This document shows, one piece after another, positions 1-17,860 of a stretch of 20,756 nucleotides of DNA. A program made the position numbers and the translations under genes. Location of the stretch: contig RPQS01000064.1 of the NCBI GenBank assembly GCA_003818605.1, positions 1 to 20,756 of the forward strand, written 5' to 3'. A model generated the notes under the pieces. That model saw only the letters and a program-made list of their open reading frames with translations. It was not told the origin of the DNA and ran no database searches. How positions within the stretch are numbered: the first letter of the stretch is position 1; each line of letters starts with the position of its first letter. The DNA comes from Candidatus Zhuqueibacterota bacterium (lineage in GTDB: Bacteria > Electryoneota > RPQS01).

Positions 1-2122
1 CCCACGGATAACAGCGATTATCCGTGTTCCCTCTGGCTGCCCGTTCCCACTCCGCTTCGGTGGGAAGTCGTTTTCCTTGCCAGGCAGCGTAGTCGCAGGC
101 ATCATACCACGAGACGTTCACCACGGGGTAATTCGCATAGGCTGAATCGGTGAAATAGTCAGGCATACCGGGGAATCCGGGATCGGGCGGATAACTGCGG
201 GCTGTGGAATCGCAAAAAGCTTTATACTGTGCGTTGGCAACCTCGAATCTGTCAATGAAGAACGCCGGCACATGGACAGTGTGGATGGGATGGGAATGTT
301 CAGGCCAGGTAGATCCCATATTATACGAACTTCCCGGAATCAGAACCATACCCGCCATGCTGTCGCTTGTTCCGGTCGTGAAGGACCAGAGAGGACCTTG
401 CGCCGTGTGGTCGTGATCATCATAAACGATAATCCGCCAATAGTAGGTTGTCCAGCTCGTCAACGTTCCCGGATCATAGGTGGCACCGGATTGTGCGGTA
501 CTCACCAGCGAAGGCGTTGAATCCGTCCCGAAATAGACATCATAGGTTAACGGATCCAGATCGGGATCAATGCCTGTCCACGAGAGTACCGAATCAACCA
601 ACTGGCCGATTGCGCCGTCAGCCGGGTATGGGAAAATCGGAACCGGGGGCTGATTCACAACGTTTGTCGCTGCGCAACGGAATCCGTACATGAAGCGTCG
701 CACCGTCGGAGAATAGTTCCAACGATAGCCGCACCGCAAAAATGTGTCCGGAGCGCTCCACGAGCCGCCCCGCAAAACGCGATTGGAGGCGCGTGGAGTG
801 TCAATCCATGCGCTTCCATTAGTAGGGGCGCCATCGTAAGAGGCATGCCAATCATCCTCGCACCATTCCATAACATTGCCTGCCATGTCGAAACAGCCCA
901 CCGGACTGACGCCATTAGGAAAATGACCAACCGGTGATGTATTTGTGTAGCCGTCGGAGGATTGGGAACCGTTTGCGTTTCCCGCAACCCAGGTATCCCC
1001 CCACGGCCATTGACGATTATCCGTGTTGCCTTTAGCCGCCCGTTCCCATTCCGCTTCCGTGGGCAAACGCGCGCCCCTCCATGCGGCATAGGCTTTCGCA
1101 TCATCCCAAGAAACCATGACTACCGGATAATTCGCATAGGTTGGATTGGTGACAACATAATCCGGTGCATCAAATGCCGGAACCAGCGGATAAGCTCGTC
1201 CTGTCGCATCGCAAAACACCTTATACTGTGCGTTCGTTACTTCATATATGTCTATATAAAACGCCGGAACGTGAACCGTATGGATAGGCAGCGAATAGGG
1301 AGGCTGGTAAGCCGCACCCATGCTGTAGGAACCCGCCTGAACGAACACCATTCCCGCGGGCAGAACATCATGATGGCGTAAATAAGTCACCAGCGCCGAA
1401 TCCTGCCCCTCCGCCAGCGTAAAGCTGAGAATCAGCGAATCATAATCCGCATACCGGAATTCGAGCTGGACCGAAACATCATCCAACGTGCGGGATTCTC
1501 CGGTTCGATGCGCGGCGCCCTCGCCGCCGATAGGACTTCTCCTGAACATCGAAACGTGCACTTCCTCGCCGCCGGAGGGTCCATTGCCCGGATCCAGCAG
1601 CACCATCTTTCGGGACTTGATCCCGTTGGGAGTATGCACCACAGTAAAATAGATTCCTCCGGCAATGCGCTGTCCCGTCGCGCTGCGTCCATCCCACCGG
1701 AAATCATAATATCCCGGCTGAAGTTTCCGATGGACAAGCTCCGTTACTTTCTGACCTAATATGTTGTAGATGGATACCCGCACGTCCTGCTGAATCGGAT
1801 TGGTCAGGCTGAAAGTTGTGCCGTTCGAGAAGGGATTCGGATAATTGGGAGTCAGATCAATGGTCTGCGGCAGCAGCGCGCGATTGTTTGAAGCACCGCT
1901 GGTATGAAACGTGTGAGCCCAATGGCCGCTGCCATCCGTCTGAACGGAATCCGTCTGTCCCGCGGAAATATCGGTAATGCGAACCCACGCCCCGGCCAAA
2001 ACGGTCGTATCGTGCACGGAATAGCCGAAGACCGTTCCGTGCAGCGAAACATCATCTAAAGTTTGCGCGGCGGCAAACTGCCCGATCAGCATTAAAACCA
2101 CAACGGTCAGAACGTGCTTCAT
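1..2122 (-). CDS. Secreted tandem FGE/SUMF1-domain protein, partial (C-terminus beyond window start). N-terminal signal peptide, CarboxypepD_reg-like region, internal FlgD-Ig/T9SS-CTD-like beta-sandwich, then two FGE-sulfatase domains separated by an Fn3-like linker.
   Basis: Translated by hand on the minus strand from the ATG at 2122..2120, giving MKHVLTVVVLMLIGQFAAAQTLDDVSLHGTV.... The ORF track lists no stop-bounded ORF in this frame across 1..2122, consistent with an open ORF running off the edge. Hand-translated motifs: LTPNYPNPFSNGTTFSL (rc of ~1790-1850), DAKAYAAWRGARLPTEAEWERAAKGNTDNRQWPWGD (rc of ~1000-1110) and YANYPVVNVSWYDACDYAAWQGKRLPTEAEWERAARGNTDNRCYPW (rc of 1-140). These match the domain order and spacing of the gene at 13153..15603 (EAEWERAA at residue ~355 and ~688 in both). 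Confidence 0.8.
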   Translation of the reverse strand, partial: MKHVLTVVVLMLIGQFAAAQTLDDVSLHGTVFGYSVHDTTVLAGAWVRITDISAGQTDSVQTDGSGHWAHTFHTSGASNNRALLPQTIDLTPNYPNPFSNGTTFSLTNPIQQDVRVSIYNILGQKVTELVHRKLQPGYYDFRWDGRSATGQRIAGGIYFTVVHTPNGIKSRKMVLLDPGNGPSGGEEVHVSMFRRSPIGGEGAAHRTGESRTLDDVSVQLEFRYADYDSLILSFTLAEGQDSALVTYLRHHDVLPAGMVFVQAGSYSMGAAYQPPYSLPIHTVHVPAFYIDIYEVTNAQYKVFCDATGRAYPLVPAFDAPDYVVTNPTYANYPVVMVSWDDAKAYAAWRGARLPTEAEWERAAKGNTDNRQWPWGDTWVAGNANGSQSSDGYTNTSPVGHFPNGVSPVGCFDMAGNVMEWCEDDWHASYDGAPTNGSAWIDTPRASNRVLRGGSWSAPDTFLRCGYRWNYSPTVRRFMYGFRCAATNVVNQPPVPIFPYPADGAIGQLVDSVLSWTGIDPDLDPLTYDVYFGTDSTPSLVSTAQSGATYDPGTLTSWTTYYWRIIVYDDHDHTAQGPLWSFTTGTSDSMAGMVLIPGSSYNMGSTWPEHSHPIHTVHVPAFFIDRFEVANAQYKAFCDSTARSYPPDPGFPGMPDYFTDSAYANYPVVNVSWYDACDYAAWQGKRLPTEAEWERAARGNTDNRCYPW

Positions 2123-2416
2123 GCGGATATCCTCTCCATTTCAGCGGGACAGATGATTCCTTCGGTCCGCGCGAGAGTTACTCTGTTGTGTCTATCGAAT
2201 TTCCCGAAAGAATAAAAACGAACCTGCCTGCTGTCTATTCGACCGTCTAATGTAGCGAACAATTCAATACCAATCAATTTCCCGCGCGTGTATAAGTAAC
2301 TTTTTATTAAATTCCTTACGCATTGACGATAATCCGATCTTATCTCATGAAAATCACGGCCCCACCCGGAATCTGACCGTCTACGGTCATCCTGAACGAA
2401 GTGAAGGATCTCTCTT

Positions 2417-2566
2417 TTCCCTCCGTTCATCGCAGATCTCGCTTCGCGGACCTGCCCCGCAACGCAACCACCGCAAGGTGCACCGCGCCGGATTACTAGC
2501 CAACACCCTCCCGGTTGTTGGTCGCAACCCCCGCCGCAATCTTTGTCTTCTTTCCGCTTTCCTTTT
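2417..2566. repeat. Rep-B copy 1: ~140-150 bp structured repeat, near-identical to 7246..7391
   Basis: CCGTTCATCGCAGATCTCGCTTCGCGGACCTGCCCCGCAACGCAACCACCGCAAGGTGCACCGCGCCGGATTACTAGCCAACACCCTCCCGG(T/G)TGTTGGTCGCAACCCCCGCCGCAAT(C/T)TTTGTCTTCTTTC is shared with copy 2 with only 2 mismatches. It contains a hairpin CCAACACC-N6-GGTGTTGG and a GCTTCGC heptamer. Confidence 0.85.
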
Positions 2567-2663
2567 TTCATCCTTCATCCCTCATCCTTCATCCTTTCTT
2601 ATGTGCGTGGGCGGACACAAGGGGGTCTCTTCTTCGCGGCGGCAGGCATCTTGTCCGTCGAAA

Positions 2664-2718
2664 ACGAGATCTCGCTCCGCGGACCTGCCCCGCAACGCAA
2701 CCACCGCAAGGTGCGCCG
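2664..2718. repeat. Partial Rep-B copy (5' half, ~55 bp)
   Basis: ACGAGATCTCGCTCCGCGGACCTGCCCCGCAACGCAACCACCGCAAGGTGCGCCG matches the first ~55 bp of Rep-B with a few substitutions. Confidence 0.7.
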
Positions 2719-2812
2719 AGCGTGGGTCGCTTCACCCCTCGCGCTCTTTCCGCCGAGCCGGGGCTCCTGACCCGGCCGGAATGATTTCGTTCCGCGTAGG
2801 GACACGGCCTGT

Positions 2813-2856
2813 CCGCGAAGCGAGATCTCGCCGATGTCGGACCGTGTCCGTCTGAC
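2813..2856. repeat. Rep-C module (~45 bp) containing the 12-bp palindrome GCGAGATCTCGC
   Basis: CCGCGAAGCGAGATCTCGCCGATGTCGGACCGTGTCCG resembles 7150..7195. It is flanked by the inverted repeat GGACACGG...CCGTGTCC and contains a GCGAAGC heptamer at 2815..2821. Confidence 0.65.
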
Positions 2857-2888
2857 TTACCGCGTTGGTTTCCGCAACGATATTCGTA

Positions 2889-2914
2889 GCGCCCGGCTTG
2901 CCGGGCTTTTTTGT
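2889..2914 (+). terminator. Rho-independent terminator (orphan, no upstream plus-strand CDS)
   Basis: GCCCGGC-TT-GCCGGGC hairpin (2891..2906) followed by TTTTTTGT (2907..2914). Confidence 0.6.
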
Positions 2915-3043
2915 GGGCAAAATATTTCACACATCGAAATTTAAATTTTATCGGCATAAATACTTATAATTGGATCAAACATCGCATATAATGTCGTCTT
3001 ACTAATATGTTCATATGTATTTTCGGACAATACAATAATTTTC

Positions 3044-3072
3044 TTGACTCTCTGAGTAGTGCATATTAAATT
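3044..3072 (+). promoter_or_regulatory. Sigma70-like promoter for the histidine kinase operon
   Basis: TTGACT (3044..3049), 17-bp spacer, TAAATT (3067..3072), about 80 nt upstream of the ATG at 3154. SD-like AAGGGGA lies upstream of the start. Confidence 0.5.
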
Positions 3073-3153
3073 GAGCAACTTATCGTGAAAAGGGCATGAG
3101 TCGAATTTGCTCCTGGATAGATCAAATGGGTTTTATAGCATAAGGGGAAAAGA

Positions 3154-5875: not shown

Positions 5876-7120
5876 ATGCCTCCGCAAATTGATATTAACT
5901 GGGCTTGTGTATATTACGAGTCCCTGACGACGTTTCTTGTTTTTGCGCTCGGCTTGCCCGCCCTGCTCTTTCAATTGGCCATGCCCGAGATTCGATATGT
6001 GCTTCATCGAAGGCCGTCCACTTGGCTGCTTTTCTGGATCCCAGCGCCTTGTCTTGCATTCTGCTGTATGGCCTTTATTTGGTGTTTTCATCCTTGCCCT
6101 GACGATAGTTTGTCCATGAGAAAATGCGAAGCTGCCTCATGGCTCATCACTGTAATCTTGATTCTCCTTGTCGTTTGGTCTCTCTTCCTCTCGTTCTGGG
6201 GACGACGTTTGCTGATAAAGATTCTGCGATTTCGAATCACGAGACTTTATGATTCCAATAACAGTATTGACATCGAAACGTTGGACGATCTCATCTATCT
6301 TGGTGAACAGGGCAAACGCGGAAACGAAAAAAAGAGTGTGCTTGATGAACTGAAGAAGCTTGCTGAATATGTTATTCAGAGCGATGGCTACGACGGTTCC
6401 GTTTTGGACAACGTAATAAAGGGTGTCGAAAAAATTGTTGCGAATGGCAAGGAACCGGGCTGTCGTGACGATTTCGAAAGAGCGACTGAAATTCTGATTA
6501 GCATCAAGAACCATTTGAATGTACAGAGTAAAAAAAATCAGTTCGCACTTCAGATTCCAATGAATCAGGGTGAAGGCCTTGTGCTTACTGACGCGCATGA
6601 CTATCGAATATTTCACAAAGTATTGTCATCAGTACAAAAAAAAACGAAGTTAAAAGTGGTCGAGCTCGCTGATAAAAATGACTATCGAATTGTCATAGAT
6701 GTCCTAAGAGATATCTGCCTGTCAGCAGTGAAGCATGAATTCACCTCTACGGGTAAAGACTGCGTTGAGGCTATTGTTCCGAAGAGTACGGCCTTATTTC
6801 AAATTGGCAAATTCGCCTTTCTCGAAGGTCATCATTTTGTTTCGCTCGTATCACTTAATAAATTGGATGATATAGCTCAACGGCAGCTAAAATTCAAGGC
6901 GAATGAAGATGTATTCAATCTCCTCGGCCTCATTGCCTATTTCTGGGCTGGCGGCGAGTCCTCGCGCAAACAGGCGGAAGATTATCTACGTGATGTGAAG
7001 GACATGTTTGATCCTTCTTTCATGGTTTGTACTGAAGCAGCCATCGAATATCATCGTACTTTTCCCCATTACGACACCGCCGACAAACTTCTCATCCTCC
7101 TCCGCGAGTATCCCTTTTAG
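5876..7120 (+). CDS. Membrane protein with four N-terminal TM helices and a large cytoplasmic alpha-helical domain, function unknown
   Basis: 414-aa ORF starting 4 nt after the receiver stop (operon arrangement). Hydrophobic stretches LTTFLVFALGLPALLF, WLLFWIPAPCLAFCCMAFIW and WLITVILILLVVWSLFLSFW. The remainder is charged and helical. No recognisable family. Confidence 0.7.
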   Translation: MPPQIDINWACVYYESLTTFLVFALGLPALLFQLAMPEIRYVLHRRPSTWLLFWIPAPCLAFCCMAFIWCFHPCPDDSLSMRKCEAASWLITVILILLVVWSLFLSFWGRRLLIKILRFRITRLYDSNNSIDIETLDDLIYLGEQGKRGNEKKSVLDELKKLAEYVIQSDGYDGSVLDNVIKGVEKIVANGKEPGCRDDFERATEILISIKNHLNVQSKKNQFALQIPMNQGEGLVLTDAHDYRIFHKVLSSVQKKTKLKVVELADKNDYRIVIDVLRDICLSAVKHEFTSTGKDCVEAIVPKSTALFQIGKFAFLEGHHFVSLVSLNKLDDIAQRQLKFKANEDVFNLLGLIAYFWAGGESSRKQAEDYLRDVKDMFDPSFMVCTEAAIEYHRTFPHYDTADKLLILLREYPF

Positions 7121-7149
7121 TATTTGTGTAGTATCACTGCCTGTCTGCC

Positions 7150-7195
7150 AAGCGAGATCTCGCCGCAGGCCGACCGTGTCCGATGCACAGACACG
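7150..7195. repeat. Rep-C module copy 2
   Basis: AAGCGAGATCTCGCCGCAGGCCGACCGTGTCCG plus CGTGTC...GACACG inverted repeat. Related to 2813..2856. Confidence 0.65.
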
Positions 7196-7206
7196 AAACA
7201 TCATTT

Positions 7207-7238
7207 GCAATAAAAAACGGGCGCACATTCGTGCGTCC
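7207..7238 (-). terminator. Rho-independent terminator for the TetR transcript
   Basis: On the minus strand: GGACGCAC-GAAT-GTGCGCCC hairpin (rc of 7218..7237) followed by TTTTTTATT (rc of 7208..7217). Confidence 0.6.
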
Positions 7239-7245
7239 GCTGTGA

Positions 7246-7391
7246 ATTCTCCCCCCGTTCATCGCAGATCTCGCTTCGCGGACCTGCCCCGCAACGCAAC
7301 CACCGCAAGGTGCACCGCGCCGGATTACTAGCCAACACCCTCCCGGGTGTTGGTCGCAACCCCCGCCGCAATTTTTGTCTTCTTTCAGCTT
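7246..7391. repeat. Rep-B copy 2. It lies between the TetR stop codon (7392..7394) and the TetR terminator. Its GCTTTC-rich 3' tail continues to ~7412 inside the TetR C-terminal codons.
   Basis: Identical to 2417..2566 except 2 substitutions. Here the hairpin is perfect: CCAACACC-CTCCCG-GGTGTTGG. Confidence 0.85.
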
Positions 7392-7991
7392 TCAGATTTC
7401 CGCTTTCCGCTTTTCTTCCACGATTCCCTTCATAATCCCCTTCACCACCCGCTTCACCGACAACGTTTTCGTGCACGTCGTCACATAAGGCACGGCTCCC
7501 TCCACTGCACAAAACAAGGCCGTGGCTTGCGCGGCCGTGTCATGTTTGACCAACTGTCCCTGCTTCACTCCGCACGACAGCATATATTCGTACCAGTTGA
7601 TCATGGCCGCGATCCGCACATTCACATGCGGCCACCACACTTTATTCTGCAGGGTGTGAACGACTCCCAGCAAATAAAATTCCTGCTCCCGCGGATGACT
7701 GGCCCAATACTTCAGATAATCTTCGATAAATTTCCGCAGCCCCGTCACCGCATCCAATCCGCCCGCCGAATTCATCATCACTTGCACGGGTTCGAATAGC
7801 CGTTCACGGACCGCCGCCAACACCGATTCCTTGTTGGAAAAGTAATGATAGAGCGTGGATCGGTCTATCTTCGCACGTTTTGCGATCTTTTCCATTGAAA
7901 CACCATCGTAGCCCCATCGTATAAATTCGCGAAAAGCGGCATTAATGATGTCTTTGATTCTTTTGTCTTTAGCCTGAATTGTGCCGGGCAT
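7392..7991 (-). CDS. TetR/AcrR-family transcriptional regulator
   Basis: 199 aa. N-terminal HTH AAFREFIRWGYDGVSMEKIAKRAKIDRSTLYHYFSNKESV is typical of TetR. The C-terminal helical ligand domain is present. Confidence 0.9.
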   Translation of the reverse strand: MPGTIQAKDKRIKDIINAAFREFIRWGYDGVSMEKIAKRAKIDRSTLYHYFSNKESVLAAVRERLFEPVQVMMNSAGGLDAVTGLRKFIEDYLKYWASHPREQEFYLLGVVHTLQNKVWWPHVNVRIAAMINWYEYMLSCGVKQGQLVKHDTAAQATALFCAVEGAVPYVTTCTKTLSVKRVVKGIMKGIVEEKRKAEI

Positions 7992-8023: not shown

Positions 8024-8130
8024 TAATATAACTTTCGTATGAACAACCATCAAGCCTGCAACTTTTCTTTCCGCTCTTTCGTTTGTATATTGTATTCACT
8101 TTCTATGTCTCATCGGCGGATTGCGGCTTT

Positions 8131-8177
8131 TCAATATTTCGGCTTCAGCTTTCCGCTTTCAGTTCTCAGCTTTCTGT
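8131..8177. repeat. GCTTTC-rich module related to the 3' tail of Rep-B, directly upstream of ssrA
   Basis: TTCGGCTTCAGCTTTCCGCTTTCAGTTCTCAGCTTTCTG compared with the Rep-B tail TCTTTCAGCTTTCAGATTTCCGCTTTCCGCTTTTC (7381..7415) and TTCTTTCCGCTTTCC (2550..2566). Confidence 0.5.
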
Positions 8178-8182
8178 ATTCC

Positions 8183-8535
8183 GGGGACGACATGGTTTCG
8201 ACGGGATTCAGGATGGCATTGGGTGCAGGTCGAGGCTGGAGTGCCCTCGTAAATCACATTCCAAAACAATAAGTGCGAACAACACTTATGCCCTTGCTGC
8301 CTAATTAATTAGGGAGCATGCCCTCCCCGGCTGGGGCGCAGCGGTCGGGGATGCGGCACCAACTCTCTGCGCTGGCGTACGGCAGGCCGCGGTCCGTGCG
8401 TGAGATTATGCGGCTGGCTTCCCCAAGCTCTGTCGTTGGTGCGACCGGGAAGTGAGAAACTAACCAGCGAAGACACCTGTGGTACCCGGTGTGGTCCGCT
8501 TTCCGGACGCGGGTTCGATTCCCGCCGTCTCCACT
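8183..8535 (+). ncRNA. ssrA: tmRNA (ssrA), tag peptide (A)ANNTYALAA
   Basis: 5' GGGGACGACATGGTTTCGACGGGATTCAGG... matches the tmRNA 5' consensus GGGGNNGANNNGGNUUCGACGGG. The tag reading frame GCG AAC AAC ACT TAT GCC CTT GCT GCC TAA runs 8275..8304, followed by TAATTAATTAG. The 3' tRNA-like end GGACGCGGGTTCGATTCCCGCCGTCTCCAC pairs GGGGACG with CGUCUCC (7 bp, one G:U). Discriminator A. CCA is not encoded. Confidence 0.9.
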
Positions 8536-8574
8536 AAAGCCCTTGTTAACGATTATGTTAACGAGGGCTTTTGG
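8536..8574 (+). terminator. Terminator of ssrA
   Basis: AAAGCCCTTGTTAAC-GATTAT-GTTAACGAGGGCTTT long hairpin (~14 bp stem, one mismatch) followed by TTGG. Contains two GTTAAC sites. Confidence 0.6.
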
Positions 8575-8750
8575 TATACAAGCACATGACATATTCGTTT
8601 TCCTTGCAGTGTGCTGTCATTCATTGACTCTCGAAAGACATTTTGCTAACTTGAGATTAATGCACTTCGGCTGAGGGTTCACCCTTGTCATGCACCTTAA
8701 GATGAGCGAATTCTCTGTTGAAAAGCAGTAGGGTTCGCTCGGTTCATTTT

Positions 8751-9042
8751 ATCACCTGCCGCTATCAACATCATAGCGACGGCCGATAGAGCATCGAGAT
8801 GAGCACGCTGCCGCGAAGCGGCACAGCAAGCATAGCACCTTCGGTGCCATCGCCATTATAGCGACTGCCGAGTGGGCATCGGTGGCAGCGAAGCGGCGCG
8901 AGCCGAGTACTTATTCGCACCTTCGGTGCCATTACCATTATGGCGATAGCCAGTAGGGCAGCGAGATGAATACGCTGCCACTAAAGCGGTGCACACACAC
9001 GAGACAACGCTGCACCTTCGGTGCCATCACCATCATAGCGAG
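8751..9042. repeat. Rep-A tandem cluster: four head-to-tail units (8751-8834, 8835-8916, 8917-9011, 9012-9042 truncated)
   Basis: Each unit begins (A)TCACCTGCC / GCACCTTCGGTGCC, then CATC(A/G)CCAT(C/T)AT(A/G)GCGA(C/T)(A/T)GCC, then a variable part containing CGCGAAGCGGC-like hairpins. Period 82-95 bp. Degenerate Rep-A-like fragments also occur at 8668..8720. Confidence 0.85.
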
Positions 9043-9077
9043 AAATAACAGCATATCGCAAACGAGGTTTATTCGCG

Positions 9078-9740
9078 ATGACGACGGAAAACCTGTGGCC
9101 GAAAGAATGTGCAATGTGTGGCAAGGTTAGCGCACACACCAAACTTAGTTCAAGTACGGAGTTCGGCCCCCCTGATATGGACCTTCGTCCAGCGGAGATG
9201 TATCGTTCGACGATAAGCACTTGGATTCAACGATGTCCATACTGTGGGTTTTGTTCAGGCGACATTAGTGAGGCTGAGGAGGTTGACAAAACGATAGTCA
9301 ACAGCCCAAGCTACCAGTCACAGTTAAATGATCCGCGCTTTTCGGAGCTGAGCAATTCATTTCTCTGTCGAGCAATGATCGAGAACTCGTTGGGAAACTA
9401 TCAGGCGGCCGGGTGGGCTGCATTGCGTGCCGCGTGGGTGATGGACGACAGACAAAATGTTGCGTCTGCTGCGCAGTGCCGGCTTCGGGCAATTAAATTG
9501 TTCCTGCGTGATTTCGCAGCACGGCGGGACAGCTTGAAGGAACCGGCAAAATACTATGTCCTGCTCATAGATCTACATCGGCGCACCGAGCAGTTTGGAA
9601 TGGCGCAGACCCTGTTGCTTGAGGGCAGACTTCTGAACCTTCAGGATAATGAACAACAGATATTCGACATTCAGAACGAGCTTATTGCCAAGCGTGACGC
9701 CCGATGCTACACGACATTAGGAGAGTTGCGCAACGAATAG
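9078..9740 (+). CDS. Zinc-ribbon plus helical (TPR-like) protein, possibly DUF2225-like
   Basis: 220 aa. Two CxxC pairs (CAMCG ... CPYCGFC) at the N-terminus followed by an alpha-helical region. The family assignment is from memory of domain architecture only. Confidence 0.6.
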   Translation: MTTENLWPKECAMCGKVSAHTKLSSSTEFGPPDMDLRPAEMYRSTISTWIQRCPYCGFCSGDISEAEEVDKTIVNSPSYQSQLNDPRFSELSNSFLCRAMIENSLGNYQAAGWAALRAAWVMDDRQNVASAAQCRLRAIKLFLRDFAARRDSLKEPAKYYVLLIDLHRRTEQFGMAQTLLLEGRLLNLQDNEQQIFDIQNELIAKRDARCYTTLGELRNE

Positions 9741-9767: not shown

Positions 9768-9835
9768 GTTGCACCGAAAGCCTGCCGCCATTACCAACAT
9801 CCAAAGCGCAAGTGGTGCCATTTATTCTGACGACG
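9768..9835. repeat. Degenerate Rep-A copy
   Basis: GCACCGAAAGCCTGCCGCCATTACCAACATCC...GGTGCCATTTATTC. Recognisable CTGCCGCCAT(C/T)ACCA core but diverged. Confidence 0.5.
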
Positions 9836-9882: not shown

Positions 9883-10719
9883 ATGAGAACAACCGCCTTT
9901 TTTCCCTTTTATTGGCTGCTGGTATGTATGGCTTTCGCACAGCCGCCTGATCTACAAATGCACCAATCCACAGAAGCGACTCGACAACGCGGGGGATTTT
10001 CGCTCGGACTTCAACACGAACAATCAACGCCGCTCGACGAAAATGTTAATCTTCGCCATTCGAACATTGATATTGTTACTTTCTGCATGGATACGCTGTT
10101 CGGCTACGAGACAATCTGTAGCTGGTGGGACGTTTTCAATCCATTCAGTCCAGAGGACAACTTCACCGTCGATGTTGCCCGCATTCACGCGACTCCGGAG
10201 CATCTTACTCAGTATTATTGGAACATCTTTGTCCCCGAAAGAAGTCCAGCCGATCCGGATCCCGGAAATCCCAACTTCAGCAATGCTCTCTACGACGCAC
10301 TAACCATTCAGGGAGATCCCTACGGAAGCGCAAGGATTTTTCCTGTTACCGTGGACGCTGGCCTGGGAACCGAGGACTTCCTCTTCCTCGCCCGTGCCTA
10401 CGACGATTCGATTCATTTTGTTTCTGTTGACCCGCACTTGATTCCAGTCACACATGGGCTACACGTGACCGTCACGTGTTACCCAAATCCCTCCAATGCG
10501 AAGACAATCATCTCGCTCGCACTGCCGCACGCGAGCAAAGTCAGCCTTGCCGTGTACGACATCATGGGCCACGAGGTGTGTGCGCTGTACGAGGGAATGC
10601 TTGAGGCTGGAGAGCAACGGTATGCATTTGACGGTTCGCTGCTGCCATCAGGGATTTACTTTGCGCGCTTGGATGCAGGCACCTTCTCGCAGACGAAGAA
10701 GCTCATGCTGCTGAAGTAA
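9883..10719 (+). CDS. Secreted protein with C-terminal T9SS/Por sorting domain (FlgD-Ig-like)
   Basis: Signal peptide MRTTAFFPFYWLLVCMAFAQ. The C-terminal ~80 aa are CYPNPSNAKTIISLALPHASKVSLAVYDIMGHEVCALYEGMLEAGEQRYAFDGSLLPSGIYFARLDAGTFSQTKKLMLLK, which matches the Por_Secre_tail / FlgD_ig pattern. Confidence 0.8.
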   Translation: MRTTAFFPFYWLLVCMAFAQPPDLQMHQSTEATRQRGGFSLGLQHEQSTPLDENVNLRHSNIDIVTFCMDTLFGYETICSWWDVFNPFSPEDNFTVDVARIHATPEHLTQYYWNIFVPERSPADPDPGNPNFSNALYDALTIQGDPYGSARIFPVTVDAGLGTEDFLFLARAYDDSIHFVSVDPHLIPVTHGLHVTVTCYPNPSNAKTIISLALPHASKVSLAVYDIMGHEVCALYEGMLEAGEQRYAFDGSLLPSGIYFARLDAGTFSQTKKLMLLK

Positions 10720-10730
10720 ATCATTCCTGA

Positions 10731-10806
10731 CGCCTGCCGCCATCACCATCATAGCGATAGCCGATGGGGTATCGAGATGCTGTAGAGCAGCAGGCGGAGC
10801 ACGCGC
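10731..10806. repeat. Rep-A copy (full length, best-preserved)
   Basis: CGCCTGCCGCCATCACCATCATAGCGATAGCCGATGGGGTATCGAGATGCTGTAGAGCAGCAGGCGGAGCACGCG. Flanking inverted repeat CGCCTGC/GCAGGCG encloses the core. Confidence 0.85.
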
Positions 10807-12372: not shown

Positions 12373-12415
12373 AGCTGCATCGGCCATCACCATCATAGCG
12401 ACGATAGCAGCACCA
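12373..12415. repeat. Rep-A copy (core only)
   Basis: GCTGCATCGGCCATCACCATCATAGCGACGATAGCAGC. Confidence 0.7.
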
Positions 12416-12454: not shown

Positions 12455-12820
12455 ATGGGATTTCTAAAGCGCCTTTTCACCGGTTCTACAAAGCCAGGCA
12501 AGCCGATTGCCGTAACGGACGAATCTTTCGAACAGGAAGTGCTGAATTCAGATTTGCCTGCGGTGGTTGACTTCTGGTCACCGACGTGTGCGCCGTGTCA
12601 GGTGATGGGAGGACTCTTGAATGAGCTTGGTCCAGAGTTTACAGATCGTCTTCGGATTTTCAAGTTGAACGTGGAACAAAGTCCGGACACCGCTGAACAG
12701 TACCGGATTCGGGGTGTTCCCACACTCGTATTCCTGCGCAAGGGGCGAGAAGTTGACCGTGTTGTAGGTCTGATGCCACTTCATCCGCTGCGCGCCAAGC
12801 TTGAGAAACTTGCATCATAG
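12455..12820 (+). CDS. Thioredoxin-family protein with CAPC active site
   Basis: VVDFWSPTCAPCQ ... GVPTLVFLRKGREVDRVVG is the classic thioredoxin fold. Active site WSPTCAPC instead of WCGPC. About 18-aa N-terminal extension. Confidence 0.9.
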   Translation: MGFLKRLFTGSTKPGKPIAVTDESFEQEVLNSDLPAVVDFWSPTCAPCQVMGGLLNELGPEFTDRLRIFKLNVEQSPDTAEQYRIRGVPTLVFLRKGREVDRVVGLMPLHPLRAKLEKLAS

Positions 12821-12827
12821 ACTCGAT

Positions 12828-12990
12828 GGCCTTCCGGTGCGCATCGGCCAGCATCATCATAGCGAGAGCCGATAGGGCCTTAGATGCTTCGGAGTAGTGC
12901 GAAGCGCGGTAACCAGACGTGCCGGCGCATACCGCCATCACCATTATAGCAGGGATGACAGTGGAGGTCGCAGCGTCGGCATGACCGATA
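12828..12990. repeat. Two adjacent Rep-A copies (12828-12912 and 12921-12990)
   Basis: GGCCTTCCGGTGCGCATCGGCCAGCATCATCATAGCGAGAGCCGATAGGGCCTTAGATGCTTCGGAGTAGTGCGAAGCGCGG, then CCGCCATCACCATTATAGCAGGGATGACAG.... Confidence 0.75.
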
Positions 12991-13152: not shown

Positions 13153-15603
13153 ATGCGAGTCTTACAGTGGTCCTTGGTTCTTGTTTTTACCTTTGCTGTT
13201 GTTGGCATAGCGCAGCCCTTGGATGATGTTCAATTATCGGGCATCGTCCACGGCTACTATGGGCCAGACACGACGGTTTTAAGCAATGCGACCGTTATGA
13301 TTGAGAACCTCGGAACGGGTCAACACGACTCGGTTATCACCAATGATTTAGGATTTTGGTCGTGGACCGGAGTGTCGAATGCCGTGGGCGAACCTCATTC
13401 GCCCGTGCCGGGAAATCTCGCGCTGGCTCCCAGCTATCCGAATCCATTCTCGGAGACGACGACGATTCGCATTCTGAACAATTCCCAGCAGCGTGTACGA
13501 CTTGAGGTGTATAACATTCTTGGGCAGCGGGTAGCCGAACTGGTGGATGACAATCTGCGTCCCGGCGCGTTCGATCTCACATGGAACGGCGTAAGCCGCA
13601 ACGGCACACCTCTCGCGCAAGGCATGTACTTTTTATGCTTGAACGCTGGCGGTCATGCGGTGACCCAGAAGATGGTGGTTCTTGGAACCGGTTCAGGACT
13701 TGCGAAAATGTCGCTTCGCGGGTCGAATCCGGGAAGCGGAGGATTGTTCGAACCCTTGCGCGGCTCCGGATTAAAAGGACATGCGAGCACGCTGGATGAT
13801 TTCTTGCTTCGCCTGGAGTTCCGGCACACGGACTATGACTCGGTGATCATGAACCTTACTTTGGCGGATGGACAGGATACGATGCTTGTGACCTACTTGC
13901 GCCGTCACCAAACTCCCGAGATGGTTCTGGTACCGGAGGGACCGTATTCGATGGGAGCGACTTATCGCACCACATCACAGCCTGTTCATACGGTGAATGT
14001 TCCGGCATTTTATCTTGATGTGTACGAAGTCACCAACTCCCAGTACAAAGCCTTCTGTGATTCCACGGGGCGCACCTATCCTCCCGATCCCCAATTCACC
14101 GGCATGCCCAACTACTTCACTGATCCGCTCTACGCGAATTACCCCGTGGTGAGCGTCTCATGGTATGATGCTCGCGCCTACGCTACGTGGAAAGGGAAAC
14201 GCTTGCCCACCGAAGCCGAATGGGAACGTGCGGCGAAGGGGAACGTGGACAACCGGCCGTGGCCGTGGGGAGACACATGGGTCGCGGCGAATGCCAACAT
14301 CTACCAGAATGCTGCTGACAGCTTCGAGTTTACGTCACCCGTCGGTCATTACGTTAATGGGATCAGTCCGACCGGTTGTTACAACATGGCGGGCAATGTG
14401 TCGGAGTGGTGTGAGGATGACTGGCATGATGATTATAACGGCGCCCCCACTGACGGCAGCGCATGGATAGACAATCCGCGCGGCCCCTACCGTATTATAC
14501 GGGGCGGTTCATGGCAGGGCTACGATTATAGCGCACGATGCGCCGAACGCGACTTGAACGAACCATCCATGCAACACAGCGCTATCGGTTTCCGTTGCGC
14601 CAGAAGCATCACCATCAATCAGCCGCCCTTAACTCCGTCTTCACCAATTCCAACGGATAGTGCAATCAATCAGTCAGTGACCGTCACTCTCGCGTGGACC
14701 TGCAATGATCCGGACAATGATCCAACTACGTACGATGTCTATTTTGGCACGGCATCTACGCCGCCACTGGTCAATTCCAGTCAGACAGCAGCAACTTACG
14801 ATCCGGACACGTTGGCCAACAACACAACCTACTATTGGCGAATCGTGGCGCATGACAATCACGATCACTCGACATCGGGACCTGTTTGGTCGTTTACAAC
14901 GCTGATGGGAGGCATGGTTTTAGTTCCGGCGGGGCCGTATACAATGGGTTCTTCCGCATTGGGAAGCACTGCAAGACCTGAACACACCGTCGATATTCCC
15001 GCGTTTTATATGGACATCTACGAAGTGACGAATGCCCAATATAGAGCCTTCTGTGACTCGACAAGCCGGGCGTATCCGTCCGATCCGGGCTTTTACACCA
15101 ACTACTTCACAAGCCCAACCTATGCGAGTTATCCGGTAGTCATGGTAGATTGGAATGACGCCAGCGCTTATGCGACATGGGCGGGGAAGCGGCTGCCGAC
15201 GGAAGCGGAATGGGAACGTGCGGCGAAGGGGAATACGGATAACCGCTTGTATCCATGGGGAGATGCGTGGGTTGCAGCCAATGCCAACGTCATCAATAAT
15301 CCCGCCGATGGATACACCTACACATCACCTGTAGGCAATTACCCGAATGGGATCAGTCCGGCGGGCTGCTATGACATGGCTGGAAATGTGTTCGAGTGGT
15401 GCGAGGATGACTGGCATTCGAACTATACCGGTGCGCCGACCGACGGCAACGCCTGGATAAACAATCCGCGCGGCGCCTATCGTATTCTACGGGGCGGCTC
15501 ATGGAACGTCAACCAGTTGAACGCACCATGTGCTTTTCGTTTCTTCGACAGTCCGACGTCCCGCTACAACCTTTACGGATTCCGTTGCGCCAGAACGCCA
15601 TAG
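13153..15603 (+). CDS. Secreted tandem FGE/SUMF1-domain protein (paralog of 1..2122). Signal peptide, CarboxypepD_reg-like region, internal FlgD-Ig/T9SS-CTD-like domain, FGE domain 1, Fn3-like linker, FGE domain 2.
   Basis: The probable start is the ATG at 13153 (MRVLQWSLVLVFTFAVVGIA, GGAGAG 4 nt upstream); the listed GTG at 13105 adds 16 non-signal residues. PSYPNPFSETTTIRI...GMYFLCLNAGGHAVTQKMVVL at residues ~95-185. Two copies of HTV.VPAFY.D.YEVTN.QY.AFCD ... RLPTEAEWERAAKGN ... GNV.EWCEDDWH ... RGGSW, which are the FGE-sulfatase signatures. Linker WTCNDPDNDPTTYDVYFGT...TYYWRIVAHDNHDH is Fn3-like. Confidence 0.9.
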   Translation: MRVLQWSLVLVFTFAVVGIAQPLDDVQLSGIVHGYYGPDTTVLSNATVMIENLGTGQHDSVITNDLGFWSWTGVSNAVGEPHSPVPGNLALAPSYPNPFSETTTIRILNNSQQRVRLEVYNILGQRVAELVDDNLRPGAFDLTWNGVSRNGTPLAQGMYFLCLNAGGHAVTQKMVVLGTGSGLAKMSLRGSNPGSGGLFEPLRGSGLKGHASTLDDFLLRLEFRHTDYDSVIMNLTLADGQDTMLVTYLRRHQTPEMVLVPEGPYSMGATYRTTSQPVHTVNVPAFYLDVYEVTNSQYKAFCDSTGRTYPPDPQFTGMPNYFTDPLYANYPVVSVSWYDARAYATWKGKRLPTEAEWERAAKGNVDNRPWPWGDTWVAANANIYQNAADSFEFTSPVGHYVNGISPTGCYNMAGNVSEWCEDDWHDDYNGAPTDGSAWIDNPRGPYRIIRGGSWQGYDYSARCAERDLNEPSMQHSAIGFRCARSITINQPPLTPSSPIPTDSAINQSVTVTLAWTCNDPDNDPTTYDVYFGTASTPPLVNSSQTAATYDPDTLANNTTYYWRIVAHDNHDHSTSGPVWSFTTLMGGMVLVPAGPYTMGSSALGSTARPEHTVDIPAFYMDIYEVTNAQYRAFCDSTSRAYPSDPGFYTNYFTSPTYASYPVVMVDWNDASAYATWAGKRLPTEAEWERAAKGNTDNRLYPWGDAWVAANANVINNPADGYTYTSPVGNYPNGISPAGCYDMAGNVFEWCEDDWHSNYTGAPTDGNAWINNPRGAYRILRGGSWNVNQLNAPCAFRFFDSPTSRYNLYGFRCARTP

Positions 15604-15670: not shown

Positions 15671-15725
15671 TTATCATACGCAAGTATGACAGACATGCGA
15701 AGCATCAGCCACTGCATCTGAAGTT

Positions 15726-15900
15726 GCCACTCACCTTCATCACCATCATAGCGACAGCCGATGGTGCATCGATGCGAAGCTCTGCGATATTCGAAGCCAT
15801 TCGCCTACGGATCGGCCATCATGAATATGATTGCAACCATGGTACCGCACGCGGGGATGGTGTTACGGCACAGCATCATGTGCATCAGCGACCATTGACC
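15726..15900. repeat. Rep-A copy (15726-15786) plus a degenerate copy (~15869-15900)
   Basis: GCCACTCACCTTCATCACCATCATAGCGACAGCCGATGGTGCATCGATGCGAAGCTCTGCG, and further on CATCATGTGCATCAGCGACCATTGACC. Confidence 0.75.
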
Positions 15901-16052: not shown

Positions 16053-16913
16053 ATGATCTACGTAGCGATTACGCTTCTTGCATTGCTTATCGTTTCATTT
16101 TTCGTAAAATGGGAATCCAATGCGGTTCCCCCTTGGGTGAAAGGTGCTATTATTGCTCTCGCAGCAATCTTCACGGTTTTCAGTATGGTGCGTACCGTTC
16201 CCAACGGCAGTTGCGGTGTTGTTGACCTGTTCGGCGTGATCCAGCCAACCGCACTGGATCCCGGAATCAATTTCGTGAACCCGTTTGCTGATGTAATCCA
16301 TAAACCGACACGCACCCAAGAGATCAAAGAGACCATGATCACACCATCCAAAGAAGGTCTGTCGTGTGAACTTGAAGTTTCTTGCTTCTTCCATGTCAAA
16401 AAAGAAGCTTGGCCTGTGATGATGCAAACAGTTCAGAACGGCGACCCATTAGTTCTCCTGGAACCCAATTTTCGTTCAGTAACACGTGATATTACGACTA
16501 CATCGGAGGCAAAAGCCCTATACACTGCTGACCGGACCATTCTCGCGGGTAAGTTGAAAACCGATTTGGCGACGGTCGTTGGTCCTCGTGGTATCACGAT
16601 TGAAGAAACTCCGATGCGCAGTTTGAAGTTGCCTGCGAGTGTATCTGAGGCAATTAATGCGAAGGCAACAGCGGAACAGGAAGCTCAGAAAATGGAGTTT
16701 GTCTTGCAGAAAGAGAGGCAAGAGGCTGAGAGAAAACGTATCGAAGCCCAAGGCATCAAAGACTTCCAGAAGATAATATCTGAAAGTATCAGCGATAAAT
16801 TACTTGCTTGGAAGGGGATTGAGGCGACAATGGATATTGCCAAGTCTGAAAACGCAAAAACTGTAATTATTGGATCGGGCAAGAATGGATTACCCATCAT
16901 TCTCGGTCAGTAA
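16053..16913 (+). CDS. SPFH / band-7 (prohibitin, HflK/C-like) membrane protein
   Basis: MIYVAITLLALLIVSFFVKW (TM) then VRTVPNGSCGVVDLFGVIQPTALDPGINFVNPFADVIHKPTRTQEI, which is the SPFH-domain signature. C-terminal coiled-coil-like EQEAQKMEFVLQKERQEAERKRIEAQ. The start at 16053 is preferred over the listed 15831 because the upstream 220 nt overlap the Rep-A copies and AAAGGT lies 8 nt before 16053. Confidence 0.8.
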   Translation: MIYVAITLLALLIVSFFVKWESNAVPPWVKGAIIALAAIFTVFSMVRTVPNGSCGVVDLFGVIQPTALDPGINFVNPFADVIHKPTRTQEIKETMITPSKEGLSCELEVSCFFHVKKEAWPVMMQTVQNGDPLVLLEPNFRSVTRDITTTSEAKALYTADRTILAGKLKTDLATVVGPRGITIEETPMRSLKLPASVSEAINAKATAEQEAQKMEFVLQKERQEAERKRIEAQGIKDFQKIISESISDKLLAWKGIEATMDIAKSENAKTVIIGSGKNGLPIILGQ

Positions 16914-17059
16914 TTGAGTCTGAAAACGATGGATCTTTCTCATCGGGACCATGGTCGTCGCACCGGGATCTGTGGCTACGGTCAAGGGATCCGTTGGCTA
17001 TGACGTGGAGGACGGACACGTTCTGAGAGCCTGTGTGTTCTTGGTCTTGTCCCCGAAAC

Positions 17060-17285
17060 CGGTACCACCGCGAAGCGGCACACACCACGCCTGAAATCAT
17101 AAGGCACAATTGCTGCCGCCATCACCATTGTAGCGACATCCATAAGGTATGAGATGCTGCGAAGCGGCATACCGATCTAACGCACCCTCGGTGCCATCAC
17201 CATTATAGTGAAGATGGCAGCAGTGTGCGGCAAACAAAGTATCAAGTGCCTTCGCGTGCCTCCCCCTTCATCACCATAACGAGCT
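17060..17285. repeat. Cluster of three or four Rep-A copies or fragments (17060-17080 tail fragment, 17112-17170, 17182-17232, 17246-17285 degenerate)
   Basis: GCTGCCGCCATCACCATTGTAGCGACATCCATAAGGTATGAGATGCTGCGAAGCGGCAT, then GCACCCTCGGTGCCATCACCATTATAGTGAAGATGGCAGC, then GTGCCTTCGCGTGCCTCCCCCTTCATCACCATAACGAGC. Confidence 0.8.
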
Positions 17286-17365
17286 TGTTGTGCGTATTGT
17301 TCAGACGATTTACTTACCGTATACTACTGACTGCATTCTGTTCACTTCGCCTCAGAGAGGATCCG

Positions 17366-17704
17366 ATGAAAACAACGACTCAGAACCAGGGAGACGTACT
17401 GGTAATCTACCTTCACGGGAAAATCATGGGTGAGGAGCCCGGCACAACGGAATTTCATGATACAATCACGAGCGCGATAGTCGAAGGGAAACGGAAGGTC
17501 GTCGTTGACTTCGCAAATGTCGACTGGCTGAATAGCTCTGGCTTGGGAATGCTGGTGAAATCTTATGGGATTCTCAAAGAGGTTGATGGCCAGATGCGGT
17601 TGTCTGGAATGAATGAGCCTGTAACACAAGTAATGGTAAATACACGACTCGATCTCGTATTCGAAATCCACCAGTCCGTGCAATCCGCAATTGCAAGTTT
17701 CTAA
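17366..17704 (+). CDS. STAS-domain anti-sigma-factor antagonist (SpoIIAA/RsbV-like)
   Basis: MKTTTQNQGDVLVIYLHGKIMGEE...VVVDFANVDWLNSSGLGMLV...MRLSGMNEPVTQVMVNTRLDLVFEI. Start at ATG 17366 with GAGAGG upstream. The listed 17225 start lies inside the repeats. Confidence 0.8.
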   Translation: MKTTTQNQGDVLVIYLHGKIMGEEPGTTEFHDTITSAIVEGKRKVVVDFANVDWLNSSGLGMLVKSYGILKEVDGQMRLSGMNEPVTQVMVNTRLDLVFEIHQSVQSAIASF

Positions 17705-17709
17705 GGGGC

Positions 17710-17860
17710 GCAGTGGCCGCGTAGCGGCGCAAGCTGTTAGACATTCGCACCTTCGGTGCCATCACCATCATAGCGATAGGCGATGGGATATCGAGATCGC
17801 GAAGCAGCGTGATTCGGCGGTCGGCATTCGCCGCCCACCTTCATCACCATCATGCAAGAG
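17710..17860. repeat. Rep-A copies (17747-17809 full, 17836-17860 partial) plus a GCCGC-GTA-GCGGC hairpin at 17717-17729
   Basis: GCACCTTCGGTGCCATCACCATCATAGCGATAGGCGATGGGATATCGAGATCGCGAAGCAGCG, then CCACCTTCATCACCATCATGCAAGAG. Confidence 0.8.

Follow-up and report, generated by a model that had tools for sequence, protein, structure and literature searches.

Rep-A, a modular intergenic repeat family of candidate division KSB1 with strict sense orientation and an asymmetric conserved core

Introduction

The usual small interspersed repeats of bacterial genomes are palindromic and occur in both orientations. The REP elements and BIME of enterobacteria are GC-rich palindromes with two kinds of linker that stand in tandem in transcribed but untranslated intergenic DNA, where a role in protecting mRNA 3′ ends has been proposed; REP elements occur in both orientations and as inverted pairs. 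MIRU (mycobacterial interspersed repetitive units) are reported by Supply et al. (1997 and 2000) to be oriented with their flanking genes and to have units of tens of bases. They have also been described as mobile, with a small open reading frame (ORF) that is translationally coupled to the downstream gene at a −4 nt spacing (PMC12548453). BOX elements of Streptococcus pneumoniae are composite, with internal modules in variable tandem number and a copy number that varies among strains, and form transcribed, untranslated parts of operons; their boxA and boxC ends pair in a tight fold, and they are over-represented between convergent genes (PMC3049150). The effects of boxB depend on orientation, which implies that both orientations occur, as is also the case for ERIC, and a role in attenuation has been proposed for BIME (PMC3049150). 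Here we describe Rep-A, a previously undescribed repeat family present in a 20,756-nt stretch of DNA from a Candidatus Zhuqueibacterota bacterium (assembly GCA_003818605.1, contig RPQS01000064.1, positions 1 to 20,756, forward strand; hereafter the window). Rep-A is a lineage-specific, modular intergenic repeat family of candidate division KSB1 that stands in sense orientation to genes. It belongs with the small interspersed intergenic repeats but is set apart from them in that its conserved part is asymmetric and, by prediction, unpaired, and its orientation is strictly that of the genes. Its core sequence was not found in the literature, nor was anything on repeats of KSB1.

A sense-oriented repeat family

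Defining the core as the 17-mer CATCACCATCATAGCGA and counting copies with up to 3 mismatches on both strands, we found 12 cores in the window, against 0.07 expected by chance. The repeat family proposed in a preliminary description of this DNA, which was made from the sequence alone, is therefore real. All 12 cores lie on the + strand in intergenic DNA between 8763 and 17776, and a 13th, decayed copy (9779-9812), which falls under the 3-mismatch threshold, was recognized by direct reading. In the part of the window from 8.5 to 20 kb, eight of the nine same-direction gaps longer than 60 nt hold a copy.

Copies from elsewhere were collected by an exact 18-mer scan of genomes, by a scan of metagenomes, and from contigs carrying orthologues of the SEC-C gene that follows the last window copy. 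This collection of 28 contigs (123 kb) contains 105 cores, of which 86-92 are distinct. Among 185,579 species genomes, the scan turned up 52 single matches in unrelated taxa; these are due to chance or to coding sequences, with the exception of a metagenome-assembled genome (MAG) labelled Calditrichaeota that carries two copies on a short contig (L033). A single exact 18-mer match in a Syntrophorhabdaceae MAG (L022, ~6861, minus strand) has eight extra upstream bases, GCCTGCCG, in common with the window copy at 10731-10806 that the preliminary description had singled out (copy E below); the match has no downstream similarity and no other copies accompany it, and it is probably due to chance. 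In the metagenome scan, about 24 true family loci were present among the matches listed, chiefly from one sediment sample series, and a single Parabacteroides-type coding sequence made up the majority of the 118 metagenome matches listed. The window DNA itself recurs in a sediment metagenome of the Joint Genome Institute, and its SEC-C protein is 99% identical to a KSB1 entry. Two of the SEC-C orthologue contigs have clear copies (L173 and L174) and one has a borderline match together with decayed copies (L172); the more distant relatives L175-L184 lack the family.

Sense orientation is the strongest result of this analysis. Every gene flanking a window copy is on the + strand, and orientation within the window is therefore uninformative; the earlier proposal that all copies have the same orientation relative to genes was nevertheless confirmed at the other loci. 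Counted per locus across the 28 contigs, 105 cores lie on one strand and 0 on the opposite strand. We scored the ORFs around copies with a codon model trained on the Pfam-supported genes of the window. By this measure, 42 copies share their sense with codon-supported genes on both sides, and another 32 have one supported same-sense neighbor and a contig end on the other side, while none of the 105 cores is antisense between two codon-supported genes. The few apparent exceptions stem from divergent gaps or from shadow ORFs lying over genes with better scores; in the divergent gap of contig L119 the copy points with the downstream gene. Given that antisense copies are absent, action in the transcript, or coupled to it, is the best remaining reading. 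The preliminary description had assigned the element to the mRNA leader of each downstream gene, which is too narrow: copies also begin 20-30 nt past stop codons, and arrays fill entire intergenic gaps.

Conservation of the core is deep. Among the collected copies, core positions are ~90-99% conserved, with the exception of position 16 (G/A), on contigs that span 49-60% GC. Where SEC-C orthologues share 57-77% protein identity, no block of the upstream intergenic DNA is better conserved or better aligned than the core. The number of units at these orthologous loci varies (one copy, three, five to six, or decayed copies only), and no clean pair of a filled and an empty site was recovered, as all of the loci carry copies. 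Contigs frequently end within arrays, which is typical of high-copy repeats. A core that stays constant amid this divergence, combined with a fluid copy number, suggests an old family in which something conserved keeps the core constant.

Architecture of the repeat unit

The conserved block extends from −4 to about +24 and consists of C-N-G-C, the core, and (A)GAT; it is ~25 nt long, asymmetric, and C/A-rich, and its flanks have little information content. The 5′ module takes one of three alternative forms: hairpin 1 (GCACC-TTC-GGTGC), GCACCTG-N4-TGCCGC, or GGCACGCGCTGCACCGGC. On the 3′ side, a long tail gives a unit of ~85 nt and comprises GCCGATAGGGCATCGAGATG (with a 4-bp hairpin), hairpin 2 with its GNA triloop, a GCGC-ACA-GCGC hairpin, and an ACGAGAC-type linker, whereas the short tail, AGATRACAGCAG, gives a unit of ~45 nt. 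Module X, GTGATTCGGCGGTCGGCATTCGCCGCC, occurs occasionally on the 3′ side, and in some copies a 9-nt AGATAACGA-like insert links short and long features. The order set out in the preliminary description (hairpin 1, core, ATCGAGATG, hairpin 2) is indeed that of the canonical long unit, but this is only one of several forms. Hairpin 1 accompanies 5 of the 12 window copies, and 4 of the 12 (9025, 12385, 12936, and 17195) are of the short form, without ATCGAGATG and hairpin 2. Hairpin 2 (GCCGC-GAA-GCGGC and variants) occurs at 8810, 8885, 17067, 17156, and 17716; its triloop varies among GAA, GTA, GCA, and GGA, with the G...A retained throughout.

Core-to-core spacings fall into two clusters, 41-49 nt and 69-101 nt, indicating that head-to-tail arrays are built from two unit lengths. 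Individual lengths (e.g., 44, 45, 47, 48, 49, and 82-86 nt) are not multiples of three. Units occur singly or head to tail, modules appear in many combinations, and the recurrent TGCACC lies 3, 8, or 12 nt from the core. Units contain 15-16% T; the core is 32% C and 19% G, and in whole units C and G are about equal. One reading frame of the core closes in TAG (TCA CCA TCA TAG) in all copies, and where hairpin 1 is present an in-frame GTG gives a 5-codon mini-ORF (GTG CCA TCA CCA TCA TAG) with no evident ribosome-binding site. In another contig of the collection (L056), two tandem genes for 68-amino-acid products (620-826 and 1022-1228), which by eye have the look of PspC-domain membrane proteins, each have a short unit in front of them, with AGGAG and ATG directly after it, and up to four short units lie between the two genes.

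Comparison with described repeat systems

Like MIRU, Rep-A consists of short intergenic units that stand singly or in tandem arrays of variable number and are co-oriented with genes. It differs from MIRU in its unit lengths, in the TAG that closes one frame of the core, and in having no unit-wide start codon, no consistent frame linking the flanking genes, and no sequence similarity. A coupled ORF of the MIRU type was rejected, as the frames relative to upstream stop codons are inconsistent and the ORFs that run across arrays look spurious. With BOX, Rep-A shares a composite, modular build and a variable copy number, but it has no pairing ends and no consensus fold, its conserved core is predicted to be unpaired, and it has a single orientation. 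Hairpins 1 and 2 are mutually inverted (TTC and GAA loops), as are the alternating units of BIME; in Rep-A, however, the most conserved part is not the palindromes but a nonpalindromic linker, the core. The unit of GTAG plus palindrome is not present in Rep-A, and copies are direct, never inverted. The attC sites of integrons offer another parallel: in chromosomal cassette arrays, too, genes that are unrelated but run in the same direction are each followed by similar structured repeats of constant orientation. Unlike attC arrays, Rep-A may have several tandem copies per gap (up to four in the window and six in L174), its genes are up to 2.5 kb long, and many ordinary loci carry it. Pfam identified no integrase among 10 window proteins, and no consistent pair of attC core sites (RYYYAAC ... 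GTTRRRY) was seen by eye at unit ends. The tandem copies per gap, the lack of an integrase, and the ordinary character of the loci led us to reject an integron cassette array.

Possible function and alternative explanations

We tentatively favor the view that Rep-A is transcribed along with its neighboring genes and that a conserved trans-acting factor recognizes its exposed core, a view to which we give somewhat less than an even chance. Transcripts would carry the units in their 5′ leaders, in the spacers between cistrons, and in their 3′ trailers, where the core would be kept mostly unpaired between small GC-rich hairpins. A conserved trans-acting partner, either a protein or an RNA, would recognize the core in a sequence-specific manner and mark cistron boundaries, and processing, 3′-end protection, or termination may be affected. 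The strict sense orientation, the presence of copies in most same-direction gaps, and the conservation of the core across diverged loci speak for this view. In the + strand RNA, the predicted unpaired probability is 0.58 for the core and 0.42 for its flanks, compared with 0.34 for the core in the minus-strand RNA. Standard pairs make up ~82% of cells in the middle hairpin and hairpin 2, versus 17-64% with a slid partner. The C/A-rich composition of the + strand core is what would leave it comparatively unpaired in the + strand RNA, and it also explains why the minus-strand RNA is the more stable in 71 of 86 copies (long form, 23 of 30; short form, 48 of 56). This stretch has fewer intrinsic terminators than expected (4 versus 9.4), which, together with the T-poor units, suggests that cistron boundaries need another signal. 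A bolder version, which strikes us as quite unlikely, is a genome-wide RNA punctuation: at nearly every same-direction boundary, a 17- to 25-nt single-stranded core between triloop hairpins would be read by a KSB1 RNA-binding protein, endoribonuclease, or termination factor that sets cistron boundaries and stands in for hairpin-plus-U terminators in T-poor gaps.

Several observations weigh against recognition of the core in transcripts. Its conservation figures are inflated by ascertainment, similarity to the core having been the basis on which copies were gathered. A copy number that varies freely at orthologous loci is what is expected of dispensable DNA, and the distances from copies to stop codons and to start codons vary. 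No candidate partner was identified; transcription of the units, single-strandedness of the core in vivo, the existence of a partner, and an effect on expression are all things that we infer from sequence. Sense orientation is not cleanly separated from orientation relative to replication, since all multi-copy contigs are runs of same-direction genes. Folding tests point the same way. RNAalifold gave 0 consensus pairs, both for 30 long copies and for 32 re-aligned long copies. Hairpin 2 alone did not stand out from shuffles (paired cells, 76/500; covariation score, 117/500), and neither did the inner stem CCATC/GATGG (146/500), whose central pair is C·A in 23 of the 30 long copies. Only hairpin 2 shows an excess of G·U over A·C cells (19:8; the ratio is 9:10 for the middle hairpin and 15:13 for hairpin 1), and this excess could stem from one propagated variant or from a transcription-linked C-to-T bias.

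These folding results also bear on the account given in the preliminary description, in which Rep-A, as a structured cis-regulatory RNA in the leader of the downstream gene, would combine two triloop hairpins with an inner stem (CCATC/GATGG) and an outer, enclosing one; covariation did not bear this out, and we regard it as improbable. A few window copies have the inner repeat in the GATGG form, but across the family the consensus reads GATAGG. In copy E the enclosing inverted repeat is perfect (CGCCTGC/GCAGGCG), but in the family at large it is not specific to a copy: duplex energies are the same whether the 5′ and 3′ flanks belong to one copy or are taken from different copies (permutation p = 0.37-0.85), and flanks that are equally complementary whether own or foreign indicate generic GCCGC/GCGGC complementarity rather than a maintained stem. 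The hairpin GCTGC-GAA-GCGGC exists as described, although at 17156-17168 and not at 17153-17166, while the G:U compensation that it was taken to exemplify is, on the counts above, a weak sign of function as RNA. Most copies have unrelated modules in place of hairpin 1, and the short form lacks hairpin 2. Both hairpins belong to the consensus given in the preliminary description, but copy E contains neither hairpin 1 nor a canonical hairpin 2, and it folds about equally on both strands (−32.2 kcal/mol, z = −2.0; opposite strand, −35.0 kcal/mol, z = −1.8). No Rfam family matches Rep-A: over the whole window, a tmRNA gene alone passes the gathering score, and a search of the array region 8540-9100 at E ≤ 10 returned nothing relevant. 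What speaks for a structured RNA, besides sense orientation and the excess of G·U in hairpin 2, is that hairpins 1 and 2 are real small palindromes, that a few double changes preserve hairpin 1 (GCACT-GAC-AGTGC in L173/L174 and CGGC-TTC-GCCG in L033), and that the array downstream of the tmRNA gene folds at z = −2.6. Taken together, hairpin 1, the middle hairpin, and hairpin 2 have 71.7% paired cells, compared with 67.6 ± 1.3 in shuffles (1/500), but this signal comes from the hairpin 1 columns (0/500 alone), where alternative 5′ modules create class structure rather than independent compensatory changes. A double change also preserves the middle hairpin at 17143 (CAUA-AGG-UAUG); the small palindromes matter locally, in DNA and RNA alike.

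A close rival of the core-recognition view is that Rep-A is a selfish or neutral repeat, similar to a minisatellite or a miniature inverted-repeat transposable element (MITE), that has no host function and spreads by duplication, slippage, recombination, or a mobilizing enzyme; we consider this possible, though on the unlikely side. Head-to-tail arrays of two unit lengths, modules shuffled in many combinations, copy numbers that differ at orthologous loci, the existence of decayed copies, contigs that end inside arrays, and the lack of a covarying fold all fit such a repeat. Orientation would then be a matter of survivorship, with antisense copies, which would yield G/U-rich, strongly folding RNA, purged by selection; antisense RNA is predicted to be ~5-6 kcal/mol more stable. 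This explanation has difficulty with a core that is near-invariant across lineages of such different GC content, next to proteins as diverged as the SEC-C orthologues, and that is the best-conserved block at orthologous sites, which implies either selection on each copy or a conserved mobilizing or homogenizing partner. The complete lack of opposite cores among 105 is also a stricter bias than that of BOX, REP, or ERIC, and terminal inverted repeats show no preferential pairing within a copy. On this last ground Rep-A does not fit a MITE in the proper sense, as the complementarity of a copy's flanks is the same as that between copies.

Low probability attaches to a single-stranded DNA element, whose hairpins and single-stranded motif would be read by an HUH-type enzyme (RAYT, IS200/IS605-like) or by the replication machinery on the lagging-strand template, with orientation following from genes that are co-directional with replication. 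The layout of Rep-A, a hairpin plus a conserved single-stranded motif, resembles that of HUH substrates, and the C-GNA-G triloop found in hairpin 2, where loop variants keep the G...A, forms a particularly stable structure in DNA, for example in d(GCGAAGC). The palindromes moreover fold equally on both strands, and RNA-specific covariation is lacking. On the other hand, ~25 independent contigs that are all in sense orientation would be unlikely if 60-75% of gene runs, as we assumed, are co-directional with replication, and the copy in the L119 divergent gap follows the downstream gene. Neither a transposase gene nor a RAYT gene is present in the window, and in place of inverted REPIN-like pairs all copies are direct. 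We hold it very improbable that Rep-A is a promoter or transcription factor site, acting as DNA and repeated before genes. Copies do stand upstream of most genes in the same orientation, and the end of short forms lies 18-55 nt ahead of some start codons, with AGGAG and ATG following directly in several cases. But no copy has a + strand sigma-70-like site (−35/−10, 16-18 nt spacing), conservation forms one continuous peak of 17-25 nt instead of two spaced hexamers, the distance from TGCACC to the core is variable, and copies begin 20-30 nt past stop codons and recur at intervals of 45 or 85 nt, up to six per array.

A number of narrower candidates were rejected. The minus-strand promoter match TCGATA-16-TATGAT (10748-10775, 17767-17794, and 9032-9061), in which TATGAT is the reverse complement of part of the core and TCGATA lies 16 nt upstream in long copies, has a weak −35, does not occur in short forms, and would direct transcription into the upstream gene; we judged it coincidental. 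No site resembling an intrinsic terminator coincides with the hairpin 1 or hairpin 2 modules, and the sole + strand match near a copy (12975-12989) lies just 3′ of a short unit (unit H below). A His-type attenuator leader does not fit, since the CAT CAC CAT CAT run has no start codon and the genes on either side have no relation to histidine biosynthesis. Readthrough of stop codons, or a His extension at the C terminus of type IX secretion system (T9SS) proteins, is contradicted by a stop-to-CAT frame that is inconsistent among copies. Rho loading on a rut-like composition, as a suboption, is not supported, given that only the core is C-rich. The core is not complementary to another window sequence such as the tmRNA, with no minus-strand match at ≤3 mismatches.

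The contrast between Rep-A and the usual interspersed repeats points to a conserved partner that reads the core, which might be a host factor acting on messages or a new mobilizing enzyme. In this phylum, which is known from metagenomes alone, either kind of partner would represent new biology. Rep-A also breaks assemblies of KSB1 genomes, and it could serve as a lineage marker and as a variable-number typing locus.

Individual copies in the window

All window copies are on the + strand. The first four units form an array (8746-9052) downstream of a tmRNA gene (8183-8536, + strand; Rfam, 184.8 bits; tag peptide ANNTYALAA) that lies immediately upstream of it; an ORF on the opposite strand (8305-8592) that overlaps the tmRNA gene is probably spurious. 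Long unit A (8746-8825), the first copy after this gene, has the 5′ module CACCTGCCGC, a core at 8763-8779, segment M at 8782-8801, and hairpin 2 (GCCGC-GAA-GCGGC) at 8810-8822. In long unit B (8835-8897), hairpin 1 (8835-8847) is followed directly by the core (8848-8864), and hairpin 2 reads GCAGC-GAA-GCGGC (8885-8897). Long unit C (8917-8992) has hairpin 1 at 8917-8929, a core with 3 mismatches at 8930-8946, segment M at 8949-8968, and a degenerate hairpin 2 at 8974-8992. The array closes with short unit D (9012-9052), in which hairpin 1 (9012-9024) and the core (9025-9041) precede a short tail that ends 36 nt before the ATG at 9078. The decayed copy, GCCTGCCGC-CATTACCAACATCCAAAGCG (9779-9812), lies in the gap between a gene that ends at 9740 and one that starts at 9883.

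Copy E (10731-10806), a long unit, stands between a gene for a protein with a T9SS tail (9883-10719) and a peptidase C92-family gene (10837/10850-12333). Its 5′ module is CGCCTGCCGC, its core is at 10741-10757, and segment M is at 10760-10779; 3′ of the core it carries TAGCCGATGGGGTATCGAGATG and then a variant hairpin, GCTGT-AGA-GCAGC, that overlaps GCAGGCG. The perfect complementarity of CGCCTGC (10731-10737) and GCAGGCG (10790-10796) makes a 7-bp stem that is specific to this copy. Short unit F (12374-12412) consists of GCTGCATCGGC, the core (12385-12401), and the tail CGATAGCAGCA, 53 nt upstream of the thioredoxin ATG at 12455. The degenerate long unit G (12830-12900; core, 12849-12865) begins 28 nt past the thioredoxin stop codon and is followed by short unit H (12925-12963), whose core at 12936-12952 has 3 mismatches. 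Long unit I (15714-15790) has a CACCTT-type 5′ module, a core at 15738-15754, and an M-like segment, GCCGATGGTGCATCGATG, without a canonical hairpin 2.

The gap 16913-17366 opens with a lone hairpin 2 module, ACCGC-GAA-GCGGC (17067-17079). Long unit J (17113-17169) comprises CTGCCGC, the core (17120-17136), the middle hairpin with its changed pairs, and the hairpin 2 at 17156-17168 described above. In short unit K (17182-17223), a variant of hairpin 1, GCACC-CTC-GGTGC (17182-17194), precedes the core (17195-17211) and the tail AGATGGCAGCAG. A second lone hairpin 2, the variant GCCGC-GTA-GCGGC (17716-17728), lies 12 nt past the stop codon of the STAS gene. Long unit L (17747-17855), upstream of the SEC-C gene and kept at orthologous loci, contains hairpin 1 (17747-17759), the core (17760-17776), segment M, CGC-GAA-GCAGCG, and module X (17809-17835), and its 3′ end is a partial core, CACCTTCATCACCATCAT, ending at 17855.

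Other features of the window and of related contigs

The window contains a second repeat family, unrelated to Rep-A, at 2415-2850 and 7128-7393, with the inverted arms GGCCTGTCCGCGAAGCGAGATCT and AGATCTCGCTTCGCGGACCTGCC separated by 105-116 nt. The two sites share a 147-nt segment (2415-2561 and 7247-7393) with 97% identity. One site lies in an apparently noncoding kilobase (2122-3150), where ORFs have negative codon scores, and the other in a convergent gap (7120-7392). Runs of a 7-nt unit (CTTTCAG/CTTTCCG) occur on both sides of a TetR-family gene (7392-7991, minus strand), at 7383-7413 and at 8129-8187; the second run ends just before the tmRNA gene. Internal duplications ~1 kb apart, with 71-73% identity, are present in an FGE-sulfatase/T9SS gene and in the partial gene at the left end of the window, one in each (13981-14407 versus 14977-15397 and 1-297 versus 1000-1296).

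Two related, higher-GC contigs without Rep-A, L184 (1664, 6065, 11331, and 11436) and L179 (6349, 14174, 14282, and 16194), have their own intergenic repeat, CCCCCC-N4-6-GGGGGG-ACAAAA-GGGGGG, and at least one gap contains this C/G-run repeat in both orientations. Each lineage may thus have its own intergenic repeat.

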